From: Cyanobacteria bacterium P01_E01_bin.42
GTDB lineage: Bacteria; Cyanobacteriota; Cyanobacteriia; Cyanobacteriales; Spirulinaceae
NCBI GenBank assembly: GCA_039194995.1
Contig: JBCCVR010000004.1
Coordinates: 18,883 to 82,882, forward strand
Reading direction: 5' to 3'
Length of the DNA: 64,000 nt
In this document: in pieces, positions 606-5,819 of the stretch
How the letters are laid out: the number at the start of each line of letters is the position of its first letter
How positions within the stretch are numbered: position 1 is the stretch's first letter
Program-made: the position numbers and the translations under genes
The notes under the pieces: generated by a model
What the model saw: the letters and a program-made list of their open reading frames with translations, nothing else
Told to the model about the DNA's origin: nothing
The model's database searches: none

Positions 606-610
606 AATCA

Positions 611-637
611 CTTGCTGAAATCTCTTGATTTCGCAAG
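611..637 (+). promoter_or_regulatory. Inverted repeat CTTGCTGAAATC-tctt-GATTTCGCAAG about 55 bp upstream of the globin start; putative operator or transcription-factor site
   Basis: 11/12-bp arms with a 4-bp spacer are seen directly. A TATTAT-like element and a GGAGG RBS follow before the ATG at 691. Confidence 0.3.
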
Positions 638-690
638 GAATATTATGCTTAAAATTTGGAGGATCGCATTGAGTAGGAGAACACAATCTC

Positions 691-1683
691 ATGTCCTTAC
701 AGGCTGAAATCCTAGAAAAGAGTTTTGAGAACATCAAGCCCCAAGCCAATGAATTCGTAAACAGTTTTTATGAAAACCTCTTTTCAGCCAATCCAGAAGC
801 CAAGCCTTTATTTGGTCACACAGATATGGCTGCTCAGAAGAAAAAACTACTCGGCTCTCTCGTTTTAGTTGTCGAAAACCTGCGCAAGCCTGACGTACTG
901 AGCGATGCACTCAAAGGCTTAGGTGCAAGACACGTAAAGTATGGGGCATTACCCGAACATTATCCTCTTGTCGGTAGCGCTCTATTAACAACTTTCGAGC
1001 AATATTTAGGCGAGGCTTGGACGGAAGAAGTCAGACAAGCATGGGTCGAAGCCTATGGTGCAATTACCGAATTAATGCTTGACGGAGCCGATTATTCCGC
1101 CAAAGAAGTCATCTTAGATTCCTCCTCTGAAGAGTCTCCATTAGCTGCTGAATTACTCGAAACTAGCTTTGAGAAAATCAAACCCCAAGCCGATGAATTC
1201 GTAAACAGTTTCTACGCTAATCTCTTTACTGCCAATCCAGAAGCAAAACCTTTGTTTAGCCATACGGATATGGCCGGGCAAAAGAAAAAGCTCCTCGCTT
1301 CTCTGGTTTTAGTTGTCGAAAATGTACGCAAGCCAGATGTATTAACAGAATCCTTAAAAGGATTGGGATCAAGACACGTTAAATACGGTGCATTGCCAGA
1401 ACATTACCCGCTTGTGGGTAACGCGCTTTTAGCAACTTTCGAGCAATATTTGGGCATGGATTGGACAGAAGAAGTCAAACAAGCATGGGTGAAAGCCTAT
1501 GGGGTTATTACCGAAATTATGCTGTCAGGAGCCGATTATTCAGCCGAGGAGGTCGCCCTAAAAAAGCCTACTCTCCCCCCTCAATCCCAATCTTTTATTA
1601 TTGAAAATGAGATTAATTTGGGTTTGTTTGTCGGAATTTTTGTGGGGGCAGGAGTTCTTGTTTCTTTGATGCTATTGCTGTAA
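691..1683 (+). CDS. tandem (two-domain) 3/3 single-domain-type globin with C-terminal transmembrane anchor
   Basis: Two about 140 aa repeats each carry FY(E/A)NLF..NPEAKPLF..H..QKKKL..LKGLG(A/S)RHVKYGALPEHYPLVG. These align with Vitreoscilla-type bacterial haemoglobin (Tyr B10, Gln E7, proximal His F8). The C-terminal hydrophobic stretch LGLFVGIFVGAGVLVSLMLLL and a GGAGG RBS are present. Confidence 0.8.
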   Translation: MSLQAEILEKSFENIKPQANEFVNSFYENLFSANPEAKPLFGHTDMAAQKKKLLGSLVLVVENLRKPDVLSDALKGLGARHVKYGALPEHYPLVGSALLTTFEQYLGEAWTEEVRQAWVEAYGAITELMLDGADYSAKEVILDSSSEESPLAAELLETSFEKIKPQADEFVNSFYANLFTANPEAKPLFSHTDMAGQKKKLLASLVLVVENVRKPDVLTESLKGLGSRHVKYGALPEHYPLVGNALLATFEQYLGMDWTEEVKQAWVKAYGVITEIMLSGADYSAEEVALKKPTLPPQSQSFIIENEINLGLFVGIFVGAGVLVSLMLLL

Positions 1684-1693
1684 TTTTGGAAAG

Positions 1694-2353
1694 ATGGCAA
1701 ATCCTGTTCGTCGGGCTTTTAAACCCAATCAAATATTTCAATCGAAATTTGCCATTCTTGGAATTATCGTGCTGCTCGTTGTTTGGTTTTCCGTTGCTTT
1801 TGTGGTGGATCGGCGCACCATCTTTCTTCCTGGAAAGACTTCTGTGGGTCACGTTCTTTTCGAGACATCTTGCAGTTCCTGTCACGAAGGATTTAAACCC
1901 GTGACGAATGAAACTTGCTTGCGCTGTCACGAGGCAGAAATGGCAGAAGATGCTCACGGTGCGAAGAAATTTCGAGATCCTCGGTGGGCGGAATTATTAA
2001 CCCGCGTTGACGTGCTAACTTGTACGGCTTGTCATGCGGAACACGTGCATATTTTCGCTCGCGGCGTTCATCTCAAGCCGGATCTGTGCATGGCCTGTCA
2101 TGAAGACATTATTACAGGAGAACTGGCGAGTCACGATGGTTTTGCACCCGATGGTTGTTGGACGGCTGGTTGTCATAATTTCCACGATCATCGCTCGATT
2201 TCTACGGGATTTTTGCGGCAGAACATGGATGCACCACCATTGTTACCCGTGCCGGAGGTTTTCCCCTTGTCGAGACCCGATCGCTCGGGCGAACCGCCAA
2301 AACCTGACTTGAATCGGGAATTTTTGCAGGCAAAAACGGGGAGGACAGAATGA
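1694..2353 (+). CDS. membrane-anchored multihaem cytochrome c, NapC/NirT/NrfH-like (4 CXXCH plus a possible CX4CH site)
   Basis: N-terminal TM helix (FAILGIIVLLVVWFSVAFVV) is followed by CSSCH, CLRCH, CTACH and CMACH, plus CWTAGCH. The 219 aa size and architecture are typical of quinol-dehydrogenase tetrahaem cytochromes. The start lies 11 bp after the globin stop. Confidence 0.75.
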   Translation: MANPVRRAFKPNQIFQSKFAILGIIVLLVVWFSVAFVVDRRTIFLPGKTSVGHVLFETSCSSCHEGFKPVTNETCLRCHEAEMAEDAHGAKKFRDPRWAELLTRVDVLTCTACHAEHVHIFARGVHLKPDLCMACHEDIITGELASHDGFAPDGCWTAGCHNFHDHRSISTGFLRQNMDAPPLLPVPEVFPLSRPDRSGEPPKPDLNREFLQAKTGRTE

Positions 2354-3156
2354 GCGATCGCGCAACTAAACTCTTGATTTTTGTTCTTTCGATCGGGTTT
2401 TTCTGGGGGTCTTTGTTGTCTTTTCCCGCGATCGCTCGGGCCGATGGCTTTAGCGCCCAACATATCGAGGAAATTAACAGTTTGTGGCAAAAAAGCGCCC
2501 ATGCTTTTGCCGATATTAATTGCTCGAGCTGCCATCTAGAAGCGGAAACCAAACAATTAATTATTGCCCCCAAGTTTGAAAGCTGCCAAACCTGTCACGA
2601 ACGACAAGTCGAGACATTTCTATTCGGAAAACATGGCGTTCGCTCTCTTGAAGGTCTTTCTCCATTAACCCCAGCAATGGCACATTTACCGATGAAAGAA
2701 ACGGCAAGCGATCGCCAGATGAATTGCAATACCTGTCACGACGTTCATTCGGTCGATACTTTTACCGCTTCGGTAGATTCTTGTTTGAGTTGTCATAACG
2801 ATACCCATTCCTTGAATTATGTCAAGTCAAAACACGGTTTATTATTTGCCGAAGCGAAATTGTTACCTGCCCCCACAGCCGATTTAGTCAGTTGTGCGAC
2901 TTGTCACCTACCCCGGCAACAAGTGGAAGGCACAAAAACTGTTTTTGTCAACCACAACAATACTTACAATTTATTGCCTCGCGATCGCATGGTCAAAGAT
3001 GTTTGCATGAATTGTCACGGTCTGGAATATTCCTACAATAGTATCTTTGATGATGAGTTGGTGGAAGCGAATTTTAATGCACCCCCGACGCAATATTTAG
3101 AGACCTTTGATATGGTAAAAGACCTCGAGAAAAAGCGATCGGGAACGGGGAATTAA
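2350..3156 (+). CDS. periplasmic hexahaem cytochrome c
   Basis: Signal peptide, then six CXXCH motifs (CSSCH, CQTCH, CNTCH, CLSCH, CATCH, CMNCH) in about 235 mature residues. Start and stop overlap the previous gene (ATGA), indicating translational coupling. Confidence 0.8.
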   Translation: MSDRATKLLIFVLSIGFFWGSLLSFPAIARADGFSAQHIEEINSLWQKSAHAFADINCSSCHLEAETKQLIIAPKFESCQTCHERQVETFLFGKHGVRSLEGLSPLTPAMAHLPMKETASDRQMNCNTCHDVHSVDTFTASVDSCLSCHNDTHSLNYVKSKHGLLFAEAKLLPAPTADLVSCATCHLPRQQVEGTKTVFVNHNNTYNLLPRDRMVKDVCMNCHGLEYSYNSIFDDELVEANFNAPPTQYLETFDMVKDLEKKRSGTGN

Positions 3157-3215
3157 AACTAGAGCAATTCGGAAGGGTACGAGTTAGTTTGTTTATTTGC
3201 AGAGGAGAACACCAA

Positions 3216-3860
3216 ATGTTAGCTTTTTTGAAAAAATTGAAAGCAAGAACCATTGCGTTAATGACTTTAGCCGTCGCAATTTGTTTCATCGCGATCGCTT
3301 GTGGAGGTGGCTCCGCACCGCAAGCAGGAGGTGATGGGATTAATCCGGAAGTTGTTGTCGATTACATTCACACGGTATTATTAGCTGATAGAACAGCTTA
3401 TACCAAGCACGTTGTCAATCGTTTTGAAACCCTAGAAGGAAAACCCAATGAAAAGGGTGTCGTCCCCGCAGAAGCGACAGAAGGATGGAAAGAAACCGGG
3501 GGAATTCCCCTACCTGCACAAATGTTCCGTTTGGGTGCAGAAATTGCCGCCGAAGAAGGAACATTTACTTACGGTTTAATTTCTCCGTGGAATATTAATG
3601 ATTCCCAAGCCCCGAAAACAGACTTTGAAAAAGAAGCAATGGCGAAAGTCATCGAAACGGGAGAACCTTATAAAAATTATCAAGAAATTGGCGGTCAAAA
3701 ATACTTCTCCGCCGTCTATCCCGATAACGCCGTTGCAGAGGCTTGTATTACTTGCCATAATACCCATCCCGTCCACCTAGAACGCTATCCCGACAAACAG
3801 TTTGAAATGGGAGAAGTCATGGGGGGAGTCGTGATCAACTTGCCGTTAGAAGGCGCTTAG
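3216..3860 (+). CDS. c-type haem lipoprotein with a single C-terminal CXXCH, Tll0287-like (PAS-like haem c protein family)
   Basis: AGGAG RBS 8 nt upstream of the ATG at 3216. Lipoprotein signal with lipobox IAIAC. Single CITCH near the C-terminus. Size and architecture resemble the cyanobacterial Tll0287/DUF3365-type haem c proteins. The ORF-track start at 3189 was replaced by the RBS-supported start. Confidence 0.55.
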   Translation: MLAFLKKLKARTIALMTLAVAICFIAIACGGGSAPQAGGDGINPEVVVDYIHTVLLADRTAYTKHVVNRFETLEGKPNEKGVVPAEATEGWKETGGIPLPAQMFRLGAEIAAEEGTFTYGLISPWNINDSQAPKTDFEKEAMAKVIETGEPYKNYQEIGGQKYFSAVYPDNAVAEACITCHNTHPVHLERYPDKQFEMGEVMGGVVINLPLEGA

Positions 3861-3897
3861 TTTAAGCTAGTTCGGTAATCATGTTCGGACATTCTCT

Positions 3898-3921
3898 AGG
3901 GACGTTGTTGGCAACGTCCCT
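3898..3921 (+). other. perfect 10-bp GC-rich stem-loop (AGGGACGTTG-ttgg-CAACGTCCCT) between operon genes; possible attenuator or RNA-processing/stability element
   Basis: Inverted repeat seen directly. No U-tract follows, so it is not a canonical intrinsic terminator. Confidence 0.3.
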
Positions 3922-3969
3922 GAATAGTAATCGCGATCGCCAATGGAATTAAGATTTTAAAATTGTACA

Positions 3970-4584
3970 ATGAAACCAACATTTACTACTTTAATTATTT
4001 TGACGTTCTTGGTCGCGTTACTACTCGTCCCTTTTGTTGTCAGTCCTTACTATTTGGTTTATCTCCGCGATCGCGCTTTTGAAATTCATCTCATTTTACA
4101 AGGAGAGATTTACAAGCAAATCACGGGATACTTTTCTTTACTGTTTGTGCTTGTAGAAATGCTGATCGTTGCTCGCAAGCGAGGGCGGACTTGGCTAGTA
4201 AAAATAAAACTTCCCGGATCGTTACAAATTTGGCGGCGCTGGCACATTTTTCTCGGCGTTGCTCTTTTGGGTACAACTTTAATTCATACGATCGGATCGC
4301 GGGGTTTAAATTTTAATGCAGTGTTTCTCTGGTTTTTTTTCGGGGTCACACTGTCGGCTTTAGTGGGGGCAGTTGCCGAAACGGGAGTATTAGAGTCTTC
4401 TCAACGTTATTTCGGTTGGGTTCCTCACGATACAAAAGAAGTTCATAAGAGTCGTTTTCTCATCTCTAAAGCCGCACTGATTCGCAATTTACGTGCTTGG
4501 TGGCTCAATACTCATATTTTCCTCGTTACGGCTTTTTGTGTCATGCTTGTTTTTCATATTTTTCTAGCTTACTATTATCAATAA
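3970..4584 (+). CDS. integral membrane protein (about 4 TM) with conserved His in TM helices; putative b-type haem/ferric-reductase-like membrane component
   Basis: Hydrophobicity pattern, with His at helix ends (WHIFLGVALLGTTLIHTIGS, NTHIFL, FHIFL). No named family recognised with certainty. Confidence 0.45.
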   Translation: MKPTFTTLIILTFLVALLLVPFVVSPYYLVYLRDRAFEIHLILQGEIYKQITGYFSLLFVLVEMLIVARKRGRTWLVKIKLPGSLQIWRRWHIFLGVALLGTTLIHTIGSRGLNFNAVFLWFFFGVTLSALVGAVAETGVLESSQRYFGWVPHDTKEVHKSRFLISKAALIRNLRAWWLNTHIFLVTAFCVMLVFHIFLAYYYQ

Positions 4585-4616
4585 TAGTTGTTTTTTGTTT
4601 GTTATTTGTTTTTAAA

Positions 4617-5114
4617 ATGTTAGAATTCTCTAATACCGATCGCTCATTACTCGTTACTCATTGCCGAAGGATTGCGATCGCATTGTTACTCTGTTTTTGT
4701 TTAAATAGTTTTTTGTTGGTTTCCGAAGCGAAAGCCGGACTTTTTTCGGGTTCTTCTTTAGCGGGTTTGGTGACAATGAAAAAAATGGCGGCGGAGTCGG
4801 TTGCTTATGATACAGCCGCGAACAGCGATCGCCCGATGGTTCTCGAATTTTATGCGAATTGGTGTACCACCTGTCAGGGAATGGCACCAACTATGGAAAA
4901 ATTAGAGGCGGAATTTCGAGAAAATGTCGATTTAGTCATGCTCGACATTGACGATCCCCAATGGGTTAATATGATTCAAGAATATGGCGTAACTGGAGTT
5001 CCTCAGTTTATCTTTTTAGATCGCGATCGTCATCTCCAAAAAACTTTGGTCGGGAAAGTTCCGCGATCGATTATGACTCGCTATTTTGCAACCTTATCAG
5101 ATCCCGAATTCTAA
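4617..5114 (+). CDS. secreted thioredoxin-like thiol:disulfide oxidoreductase (WCTTC active site), TlpA/ResA-like
   Basis: Signal-like N-terminus, then YANWCTTCQ and a thioredoxin fold pattern (VPQFIFLD). Start re-assigned to the internal ATG at 4617 to avoid overlap with the preceding gene. Confidence 0.7.
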   Translation: MLEFSNTDRSLLVTHCRRIAIALLLCFCLNSFLLVSEAKAGLFSGSSLAGLVTMKKMAAESVAYDTAANSDRPMVLEFYANWCTTCQGMAPTMEKLEAEFRENVDLVMLDIDDPQWVNMIQEYGVTGVPQFIFLDRDRHLQKTLVGKVPRSIMTRYFATLSDPEF

Positions 5115-5138
5115 AAGTTAGCAACTCAGGAGTTAGCA

Positions 5139-5462
5139 ATGCCAAATCTATTGTTTATATGCAGCCGCAATCAATGGCGCAGTCCGACCGCCGCAAGTCT
5201 TTTTCGCAATACTGATGGCGTAAAAGTGCGTTCGGCAGGAACGAGTAGCAAAGCTCGAAAAAAAGTCTCTAATTCGGATTTGAATTGGGCTGATTTGATT
5301 TTTGTCATGGAGAAAAAGCACAAAAATCAGTTGCAAGCAAAATTTTCGGAATCGCTTCAAGATAAACCTATTCATGTCTTAGGTATTCCTGATGAATATC
5401 GCTACATGGACGAAGAGCTTATCGATTTATTGAATGCAACAGTTACGCCCTTTCTGCTATAG
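5139..5462 (+). CDS. low-molecular-weight protein-tyrosine-phosphatase/ArsC-like small protein (CX5R motif)
   Basis: N-terminal LFICSRNQWRSP (CX5R-S P-loop) is typical of the LMW-PTP superfamily. 107 aa. Confidence 0.5.
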   Translation: MPNLLFICSRNQWRSPTAASLFRNTDGVKVRSAGTSSKARKKVSNSDLNWADLIFVMEKKHKNQLQAKFSESLQDKPIHVLGIPDEYRYMDEELIDLLNATVTPFLL

Positions 5463-5501: not shown

Positions 5502-5819
5502 ATGGATCGACATAAAGAAACGCTCGCCCAAACTATGTCTTTTCTCATGTCAATTCGTCCCGAAACTGACTTGGGCAAATTACTAAACTTTTGTTTGGCA
5601 ACAAAAATAGAACCGGAACAAACTGGGAAAACTGCTTATGAAATGGCCTGTTATCTTTTAGAACATCCCGATAATTTATCAAATTTTATTCAAGAATCAA
5701 TGGAAAGCGATGGGGAATATACTCCTGAAGAATATGTAGCAATGGGGGAATTGCCTACGCGAGATCCAGAAAGGTTCATGCAGAAAATATTTGCACAATT
5801 AGACCAAATAGAACTATAG
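5502..5819 (+). CDS. hypothetical protein
   Basis: ORF with coding-like composition; no recognisable motif. Confidence 0.35.
   Translation: MDRHKETLAQTMSFLMSIRPETDLGKLLNFCLATKIEPEQTGKTAYEMACYLLEHPDNLSNFIQESMESDGEYTPEEYVAMGELPTRDPERFMQKIFAQLDQIEL

Follow-up and report, generated by a model that had tools for sequence, protein, structure and literature searches.

A cluster of six genes on one strand (691-5114, + strand) was examined in a 64-kb stretch of DNA from a cyanobacterial metagenome-assembled genome (MAG), referred to here as the window. The genes encode a tandem globin, two multihaem cytochromes c (designated cyt4 and cyt6), a Tll0287-like single-haem c lipoprotein (Tll), a putative di-haem cytochrome b (TM4), and a thioredoxin-like protein (Trx); the cyt6 product was 100% identical to a protein of 'Cyanobacteria bacterium P01_E01_bin.42' in a protein database search. 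Comparison of related loci showed that the globin, the putative two-b-haem membrane protein, and the three predicted haem c proteins (12 sites) are inherited together across phyla, and that this co-inheritance persists through changes in gene order, fusion of cyt4 with cyt6, and fusion of TM4 with reductases. This architecture is well supported. Our tentative reading, to which we give slightly less than an even chance, is that a transmembrane haem wire links a globin of the nitric oxide (NO) dioxygenase type to extracytoplasmic haems, for the detoxification of NO and/or O2.

Conservation of the gene cluster in cyanobacteria

Relatives were sought by a pattern scan with one genome per GTDB species. 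Relatives of cyt6 were found in 190 species (569 relatives were present in the protein database), and the best 80 loci were analysed, all of which came from cyanobacteria. The hosts, mostly benthic mat formers and mostly marine, include Moorena, Okeania, Symploca, Caldora, Roseofilum, Xenococcus, Pleurocapsa, Hyella, Spirulina, Coleofasciculus, Leptolyngbya PCC 7375, and Prochloron; Thalassoporum mexicanum PCC 7367, Leptolyngbya PCC 7375, Xenococcus PCC 7305, and Moorena are cultured strains whose genomes carry the cluster. The order globin-cyt4-cyt6-Tll-TM4 was kept in all 69 complete loci, and each gene missing from the other 11 falls past the end of the contig. Chance adjacency was rejected, since the five-gene order recurred in 69/69 complete loci of different species. 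The coupling of the genes, which had been proposed in a first-pass annotation of this DNA, was thus borne out by their co-conservation at the loci of 80 cyanobacterial species and in other phyla, with gene fusions among them, and the view that they form one functional unit is supported by these comparisons.

Other genes recurred near the cluster at lower frequency, namely those for a lipoprotein of the Rieske type with a Tat signal (30 loci) and a ChaN-type haem-binding protein (11 loci). In the complete genome of T. mexicanum PCC 7367, the order on one strand was ResB-CcsA-Rieske-pentapeptide protein-globin-cyt4-cyt6-Tll-TM4-Trx (the ResB/CcsA/Rieske region lies at 976-5125 of locus L086).

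The tandem globin

The globin matched PF00042 in two stretches (1e-39), and its globin part matched the NCBIfam Hmp model NF009805 at 3e-47. Domain 1 (approximately 691-1110) and domain 2 (approximately 1135-1554) had an identity of 82% at the protein level and 79% at the DNA level, and were followed by a linker and a transmembrane (TM) tail and by nothing else. No match to FAD_binding_6 or NAD_binding_1 was found in the protein, and the score against the full Hmp model was 161 bits, far under the cut-off of 432 bits. TyrB10, PheCD1, GlnE7, LeuE11, HisF8, and TyrG5 were invariant in 124 globin domains from 78 orthologous genes. The nearest solved structure in a PDB search was Methylacidiphilum infernorum HGbI (3s1i, 3e-26), followed by Vitreoscilla VHb, FHP/Hmp, and Cgb.

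The sole hydrophobic segment of the protein lies at its extreme C-terminus (residues 312-330, nt 1624-1680; the last 19 residues have a Kyte-Doolittle value of 2.71), and most orthologues likewise end in a strongly hydrophobic tail of 20 residues. An N-terminal signal peptide was found in none of the globins of the 78 genes, and globins with haem b fold in the cytoplasm. Because of these three points, the globin is predicted to be a tail-anchored cytoplasmic protein. The periplasm-facing globin of the first-pass annotation did not survive this comparison.

The number of globin domains per protein varied from 1 to 5 among the cyanobacterial loci, a variation in copy number that is unusual for bacterial globins. 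Tail-anchored arrays of five, four, and three domains were found at L045 4798-7152, L050 5404-7347, and L031 1608-3149, respectively. A second globin gene, usually 3' of TM4, was present in 39 cyanobacterial loci (e.g. L075 10837-11367); its product of ~175 amino acids (aa) was ~50% identical to the cluster globin and had a conserved C-terminal extension ending in THFKYR.

These properties of the globin bear on the possibility that it scavenges or buffers O2, in which case a multi-copy, high-affinity globin at the membrane would be kept reduced, or its O2 reduced, by the cytochrome chain, and would protect processes such as N2 fixation at night or aid microoxic respiration. HGbI, the closest solved relative, binds O2 very tightly, the domain number varies as if capacity were counted, and a second globin gene accompanies the cluster in 39 loci. 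The hosts dwell in mats, and many are non-heterocystous diazotrophs. However, no nif or oxidase genes were linked to the cluster, and the contexts found outside cyanobacteria favour nitrate/nitrite assimilation and H-NOX over O2. We regard this explanation as unlikely.

The multihaem cytochromes and the lipoprotein

The cyt4 product has an N-terminal TM helix (residues 20-38) followed by 4 CxxCH motifs and 1 CX4CH motif; all five motifs and six extra His residues (53, 88, 117, 147, 164, and 166) were invariant in 78 orthologues. Of the tetrahaem or pentahaem cytochrome annotated in the first pass, the pentahaem form was thus the one that stood. In Pfam it matched only Cytochrom_c3_2 (3.6e-7). 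A structure modelled with AlphaFold2 (AF2) from 40 homologues had a pLDDT of 47, which was too poor for comparison of folds.

The cyt6 product has a signal peptide ending in AIARA, and its six CxxCH motifs and six extra His residues (51, 95, 133, 153, 162, and 202) were invariant in 23 orthologues. A search of the PDB with the cyt6 profile retrieved the HAO-like kustc0458 (6h5l) at 8.5e-8 and, weakly, the C-terminal haem portions of both octahaem nitrite reductase and NrfA (4e-5 to 1e-3). Neither a CxxCK motif nor an evident open-coordination haem was found in cyt6, all six motifs being CxxCH. The matches of both cytochromes in Pfam and NCBIfam were of the cytochrome c3 type only, and the names given to the cluster proteins by PGAP were limited to 'cytochrome c3 family protein' or 'hypothetical protein'.

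In the first-pass model, a quinol dehydrogenase of the NapC/NrfH type feeds electrons from the quinone pool to a periplasm-facing globin. The build of cyt4, one N-terminal TM helix and a small multihaem domain, is indeed like that of NrfH. The models of PF03264 (NapC/NirT), NrfH (TIGR03153), and the CymA type nevertheless gave no match to cyt4 at E<=0.1, NrfH was not retrieved at E<=1 when the PDB was searched with the cyt4 profile, and cyt4 has five haem sites, not four. Combined with a globin that is tail-anchored and lacks an export signal in every orthologue, by which the topology part of the model is largely refuted, these results make it highly improbable.

The Tll0287-like (sCache_haem) lipoprotein matched PF11845 at 1.2e-18 (68.4 bits, gathering cut-off 24.1), in agreement with the single-haem lipoprotein annotated before. 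The lipobox Cys, the CITCH motif (in 72 orthologues), Met103 within PLPAQMFRLG, His184, and His187 were invariant. No candidate Cys for axial ligation was found, the conserved Cys residues being those of the lipobox and the CxxCH pair, and the invariant Met of PLPAQMF is likely to be the sixth haem ligand, as judged from conservation. Searches of the PDB with the single sequence and with a profile gave no match, 5B82 included, the protein being too divergent for assignment of the sixth ligand by alignment.

The membrane protein TM4

TM4 has 5 predicted TM helices and four invariant His residues, which form two Hx13H pairs on two helices; the positive-inside distribution indicates that the two His of a pair lie close to opposite membrane faces. 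The four invariant His agree with the His-rich, b-haem-like protein recognised in the first pass, whereas the four helices counted there gave way to five. The predicted fold was nearest to CybB, FdnI, and cytochrome b6, and HyaC was also among the structural neighbours. A profile search of the PDB yielded a single PPR match, which was judged to be spurious. An exhaustive profile search with TM4 gave 155 cluster representatives, with P0369 matched at 4e-24; P0369 in turn scored 39.3 bits against PF14358 (DUF4405; cut-off 26.7; 1e-9). The cyanobacterial and the distant TM4 groups were aligned by hhalign at 99.9%, and the distant relatives were also weakly similar to Ferric_reduct and Ni_hydr_CYTB. 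A DUF4405 protein has been shown experimentally to bind haem b, and the family has been proposed to be a membrane electron-transfer cytochrome (PMC11334425). We infer haem b binding by TM4 as well, and regard it as a distant, putative di-haem cytochrome b of the DUF4405 type.

The structural neighbours CybB, FdnI, HyaC, and cytochrome b6 are quinone-reactive di-haem cytochromes b, and would suit a quinone-linked redox loop, in which TM4 or cyt4 exchanges electrons with plastoquinone and the globin is the cytoplasmic partner of a respiratory side branch. That the cyanobacterial form has no reductase of its own is also consistent with such a loop. On the other hand, no quinone site was recognisable in the sequence, and the reductase-fused forms of TM4 (see below) would draw electrons from NAD(P)H instead. 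A quinone loop is, in our estimate, very unlikely.

Versions of the cluster outside cyanobacteria

The cluster is not confined to cyanobacteria and occurs in other bacterial phyla. A contig with a guanine-plus-cytosine (GC) content of 70% encodes a globin (60% identical to that of the window), Tll (51%), and TM4 (30%), and its cyt4 and cyt6 are fused into a protein of 439 aa with 11 haem motifs (4 CxxCH + CX4CH + 6 CxxCH); an NrtA-like gene lies after these genes. When metagenomes were scanned with the distant TM4 alignment, 43 loci with GC fractions of 0.41-0.71 and the same four-gene set were found. They were laid out as globin-multihaem-Tll-TM4, as TM4-multihaem-Tll-globin, or with TM4 as the C-terminal domain of a ~667-aa protein, and the lipoprotein gene always adjoined TM4 or the multihaem genes. 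The N-terminal part of the ~667-aa protein matched NirB positions 1-466 at 8e-131 and NorW at 1e-44, and by these matches is an NAD(P)H-FAD-[2Fe-2S] reductase.

Among 132 open reading frames (ORFs) flanking the distant loci, the reductase was the sole strongly recurrent neighbour (Pyr_redox_2, 10; Fer2_BFD, 9), with NIR_SIR, CysJ-like, hemerythrin, and cytochrome c ORFs occurring twice each. The order NIR_SIR nitrite reductase-globin-multihaem-Tll-TM4-cytochrome c-ferredoxin-molybdopterin (Nas-like) oxidoreductase was found at one distant locus, and one distant locus adjoins an H-NOX gene. The frequent fusion of TM4-like domains to NAD(P)H-FAD-[2Fe-2S] reductases suggests that TM4 is a transmembrane electron conduit with a cytoplasmic redox partner at its inner face. 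Two further fusions were seen in P0422/P0472, in which a TM4-like domain was joined to H-NOX, a NirB-like reductase, and [2Fe-2S] (861 aa) or to two cNMP-binding domains, [2Fe-2S], and an FNR-like reductase (907 aa); their domain composition makes them look like ligand-regulated transmembrane reductases.

A reductase on the cytoplasmic side of TM4 would also fit a branch that exports electrons from the cytoplasm to a periplasmic or extracellular acceptor, as a sink at night or under anoxia or for metal reduction, with the globin as an O2/NO-responsive gate or an accessory. The fused NAD(P)H-FAD-[2Fe-2S] reductase recalls the inside-to-outside logic of NOX and ferric reductases, the eleven apparently bis-His c haems resemble a wire more than an enzyme, and most hosts form benthic mats. 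Against this, neither an outer-membrane conduit nor a terminal reductase was co-conserved, no signalling output domain stands beside the globin, the globin pocket is of the catalytic type (TyrB10/GlnE7), and the cyanobacterial version has no reductase. Electron export appears to us somewhat unlikely.

The thioredoxin-like protein

The thioredoxin-like protein matched PF00085 at 3e-18, carries the motif WCTTC, has a hydrophobic segment at its N-terminus, and is predicted to be secreted or membrane-anchored. Its score against the ResA model NF002854 (32.7 bits, cut-off 170) was below the family level. Clustering of the flanking ORFs placed a homologue directly 3' of TM4, in the same orientation, in 52-53 of the ~79 cyanobacterial loci; the gap between the two genes had a median of 55 bp. 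A ResB-like gene lies near the cluster in 43-50 cyanobacterial loci and a CcsA-like gene in 38-39. The CcsA-like protein scored 163 bits against the CcsB equivalog (cut-off 187.6) and has ~320 extra N-terminal residues, and the ResB-like protein had no match in NCBIfam; judged by these sequences, both genes look like dedicated paralogues, not housekeeping genes. Genes for ResB, CcsA, the Rieske protein, and the second globin were all absent from the 64-kb window.

Because these divergent ResB and CcsA genes accompany the cluster in other genomes, the thioredoxin-like protein is probably an apocytochrome c thiol reductant or maturation factor for the c-type cytochromes. Such a role is more likely than that of a redox component coupled to the others, as the first-pass annotation had it.

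Proposed function of the cluster

In the tentatively preferred reading, the membrane complex would be a haem wire through the cytoplasmic or the thylakoid membrane. On the cytoplasmic side would stand the tail-anchored tandem globin, whose TyrB10/GlnE7 pocket is of the kind seen in nitric oxide dioxygenases; within the membrane, the DUF4405-like cytochrome b, its two b haems stacked, with a His pair close to either face; and on the extracytoplasmic side, the anchored pentahaem cyt4, the soluble hexahaem cyt6, and the lipoprotein with its haem c Cache fold, giving 12 c haems. TM4 would conduct electrons through the membrane, with the c haems at one end and a cytoplasmic partner at the other. 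In the cyanobacterial form, the globin would be kept at the inner face of TM4 by its tail anchor, and there we infer contact between the two; in the reductase-fused forms, this place would be taken by the NirB/NorW-like reductase, from which both the globin and the wire could receive electrons. NO and O2 would be converted to nitrate by the globin, which would then be re-reduced via the wire. The extracytoplasmic haems would either supply the electrons of the globin or use the same electron supply to treat NO outside the cell. Candidate electron donors in cyanobacteria are plastoquinol, an unlinked reductase, and extracytoplasmic donors. The thioredoxin-like protein would act in maturation of the c-type cytochromes, outside the wire.

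Handling of NO is suggested by the pocket of the globin, by the distant loci with nitrate/nitrite or H-NOX genes beside the cluster, by the NirB/NorW type of the reductase, by the distant kinship of cyt6 with multihaem enzymes that convert N-oxides, and by the sCache_haem family, in which the signalling proteins act like sensors of NO (preprint 10.64898/2026.02.01.703092). On these grounds an NO/O2-related role of the cluster is plausible. Of the electron-transfer module with an NO/O2 globin that had been proposed at the outset, this role can be retained, while the quinol dehydrogenase family and the periplasmic site of the globin were not supported.

Several results weigh against the proposed wire. 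No nitrogen-oxide genes were found near the cluster in the cyanobacterial loci, and these loci encode no cytoplasmic reductase; the nitrate/nitrite and H-NOX contexts come from a handful of loci, none of them cyanobacterial. Approximately 14 cyanobacterial orthologues are single globins without a tail anchor, so that tethering is not obligatory. Both cytochromes carry enough invariant extra His for all of their haems to be bis-His, and no open extracytoplasmic catalytic c haem was evident. Finally, TM4 matched no Pfam family at E<=0.1 and hence had no direct match to PF14358 (DUF4405).

Layout of the locus and neighbouring genes

All six ORFs described in the first-pass annotation were found in place on the + strand (Table 1). 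The family calls made there for the globin, the Tll0287-like protein, and the thioredoxin agreed with the Pfam and NCBIfam searches, and the cytochromes were of the c3 type.

Table 1 Features of the globin-cytochrome cluster in the window.
Feature	Position	Strand	Basis
Tandem globin, 330 aa	691-1683	+	ORF, PF00042, Hmp globin model
cyt4, membrane-anchored pentahaem cytochrome c, 219 aa	1694-2353	+	ORF, haem motifs, Cytochrom_c3_2
cyt6, secreted hexahaem cytochrome c, 268 aa	2350-3156	+	ORF, haem motifs, signal peptide
Tll0287-like / sCache_haem single-haem c lipoprotein, 214 aa from ATG 3216	3216-3860 (ORF opens at TTG 3189)	+	PF11845
Perfect hairpin, 10-bp stem and 4-nt loop	3898-3921	+	Spacer between lipoprotein and TM4 genes
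TM4, putative di-haem cytochrome b, 204 aa, 5 predicted TM helices	3970-4584	+	Distant DUF4405-type
Thioredoxin-like protein (WCTTC), ~165 aa from ATG 4618	4618-5114 (ORF opens at TTG 4497)	+	PF00085

A spacer of 10 nt separates the globin stop from the cyt4 start, and cyt6 starts within the last 4 nt of cyt4 (ATGA). Further along, the genes are spaced by 59 nt (cyt6-lipoprotein), 109 nt (lipoprotein-TM4), and 33 nt (TM4-thioredoxin), with the ATG codons at 3216 and 4618 taken as the likely starts. Scans of the locus for promoters and terminators gave results at chance level only and were uninformative on co-transcription. The hairpin in the lipoprotein-TM4 spacer (AGGGACGTTG-TTGG-CAACGTCCCT) is unique within the window and has no T-run after it; the whole 109-nt spacer folds slightly better than its shuffles (z -1.7). 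The hairpin could be an element for RNA processing or stability.

The HIP1 site (GCGATCGC) had 9 occurrences in 606-5114, a density similar to that of the whole 64 kb (104 occurrences), and the GC content of the cluster resembles that of its surroundings. Recent horizontal transfer was rejected on these two grounds; the cluster looks native to its host, as the HIP1 sites had been taken to indicate before.

Upstream of the globin gene, 36-605 encodes the C-terminal end of a chorismate-binding enzyme of the PabB/TrpE type (PF00425, 2e-25, first 77 residues). This ORF continues for ~100 low-complexity residues and ends just before the globin gene; the low-complexity tail may be non-coding. Downstream of the thioredoxin gene and on the same strand are the genes for a short LMW-PTP/ArsC-like protein with a CX5R motif (5139-5462; PF01451, 1e-8) and for a 105-aa protein without a family (5502-5819). 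The two genes trail the thioredoxin gene only in the four closest Spirulina-like relatives (L002-L005), an ORF similar to the latter occurs sporadically around the cluster at a few further loci, and both proteins are probably outside the core system. A 554-aa pentapeptide-repeat protein is encoded at 8932-10596 on the - strand. In 41-46 other cyanobacterial loci, the cluster likewise has pentapeptide-repeat genes in its vicinity, e.g. immediately 5' of the globin gene in PCC 7367, a count in which repeat-driven cross-matching among abundant paralogues is possible.

Comparison with known systems

The globin shares its fold and the residues TyrB10, PheCD1, GlnE7, LeuE11, HisF8, and TyrG5 with Hmp/FHP, VHb, Campylobacter Cgb, and M. 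infernorum HGbI, and the chemistry expected from its likeness to Hmp-type globins is NO dioxygenation with one electron per turnover. Unlike Hmp, it has no fused FNR-like FAD/NAD domain, it is a tandem protein (1-5 domains) with a C-terminal membrane tail, and its genetic partners are multihaem cytochromes c and a putative cytochrome b, not a flavin reductase. In E. coli, NO defence is provided by Hmp, NorV-NorW, and NrfA; the extended module has a counterpart to each, in its Hmp-type globin, in the reductase of the NorW/NirB type that the fused forms carry, and in a multihaem cytochrome outside the cytoplasm, but it is one encoded unit joined by a putative transmembrane cytochrome b and has neither a flavorubredoxin nor the catalytic haem of NrfA.

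The pairing of a small anchored multihaem cytochrome with a soluble periplasmic one is known from NrfH-NrfA, NapC, and CymA, although cyt4, with its 4 CxxCH and CX4CH, lies outside the NapC/NirT/NrfH family. The cyt6 product is distantly similar to the haem cores of HAO, ONR, and NrfA and differs from them in having no CxxCK or evident open-coordination haem. TM4 resembles the di-haem cytochromes b of the DUF4405, MsrQ, PepSY-like, and NOX types (PMC11334425) in its four conserved TM His, its predicted transmembrane electron transfer, and its reductase-fused relatives. It differs from DUF4405 systems in falling under every Pfam threshold and in its partners, which are c-type cytochromes and a globin, not flavinylated proteins, MsrP, or ferrosome proteins.

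The lipoprotein has PF11845, a single CxxCH, and an extracytoplasmic location in common with Tll0287 (PDB 5B82) and other sCache_haem proteins. Haem in Tll0287 is ligated by Cys/His, whereas the cluster lipoprotein has no conserved Cys ligand and has an invariant Met. The stand-alone sCache_haem architecture, which it also shows, has been linked to redox roles (preprint 10.64898/2026.02.01.703092). As in System II maturation (ResA-ResB-ResC and CcsX/CcsB/CcsA, with the resABC operon of Bacillus), a secreted CxxC thioredoxin is encoded together with ResB-like and CcsA-like genes in many cyanobacterial loci; in this case, however, the relatives of ResB and CcsA are paralogues that have diverged, neither is encoded in the window, and the thioredoxin falls under the ResA cut-off.

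No published description of the cluster was found in open-access papers and bioRxiv, and we found no known system in which a globin is joined to multihaem cytochromes c via a transmembrane cytochrome b. Taken singly, the components are members of, or similar to, known families, namely F-family globins, small multihaem cytochromes, sCache_haem proteins, DUF4405-type cytochromes b, and System II maturation factors; the novelty would lie in a new electron supply for the globin and in a transmembrane haem conduit with a new partner. The cluster may encode a new class of complex. In its fullest form, this proposal describes a membrane haemoglobin-cytochrome complex of several phyla, in which the globin is the catalytic end of a chain of some 15 haems or more (12 of c type, 2 of b type, and 1-5 in the globin). 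The complex would work as a respiratory-style NO/O2 oxidoreductase and would represent a long-sought physiological reductase system for single-domain bacterial globins; we regard this as possible rather than probable.

Significance

The source of electrons for bacterial single-domain globins such as VHb, Cgb, and their relatives is an old question, to which a dedicated membrane cytochrome chain would be a concrete candidate answer. The cluster also gives a context to stand-alone sCache_haem proteins, DUF4405-like cytochromes b, and proteins named only as 'cytochrome c3 family'. Cyanobacteria are usually regarded as poor in multihaem cytochromes. If the proposal holds, they would gain an extra redox branch, present in ~190 species, most of them benthic and marine.

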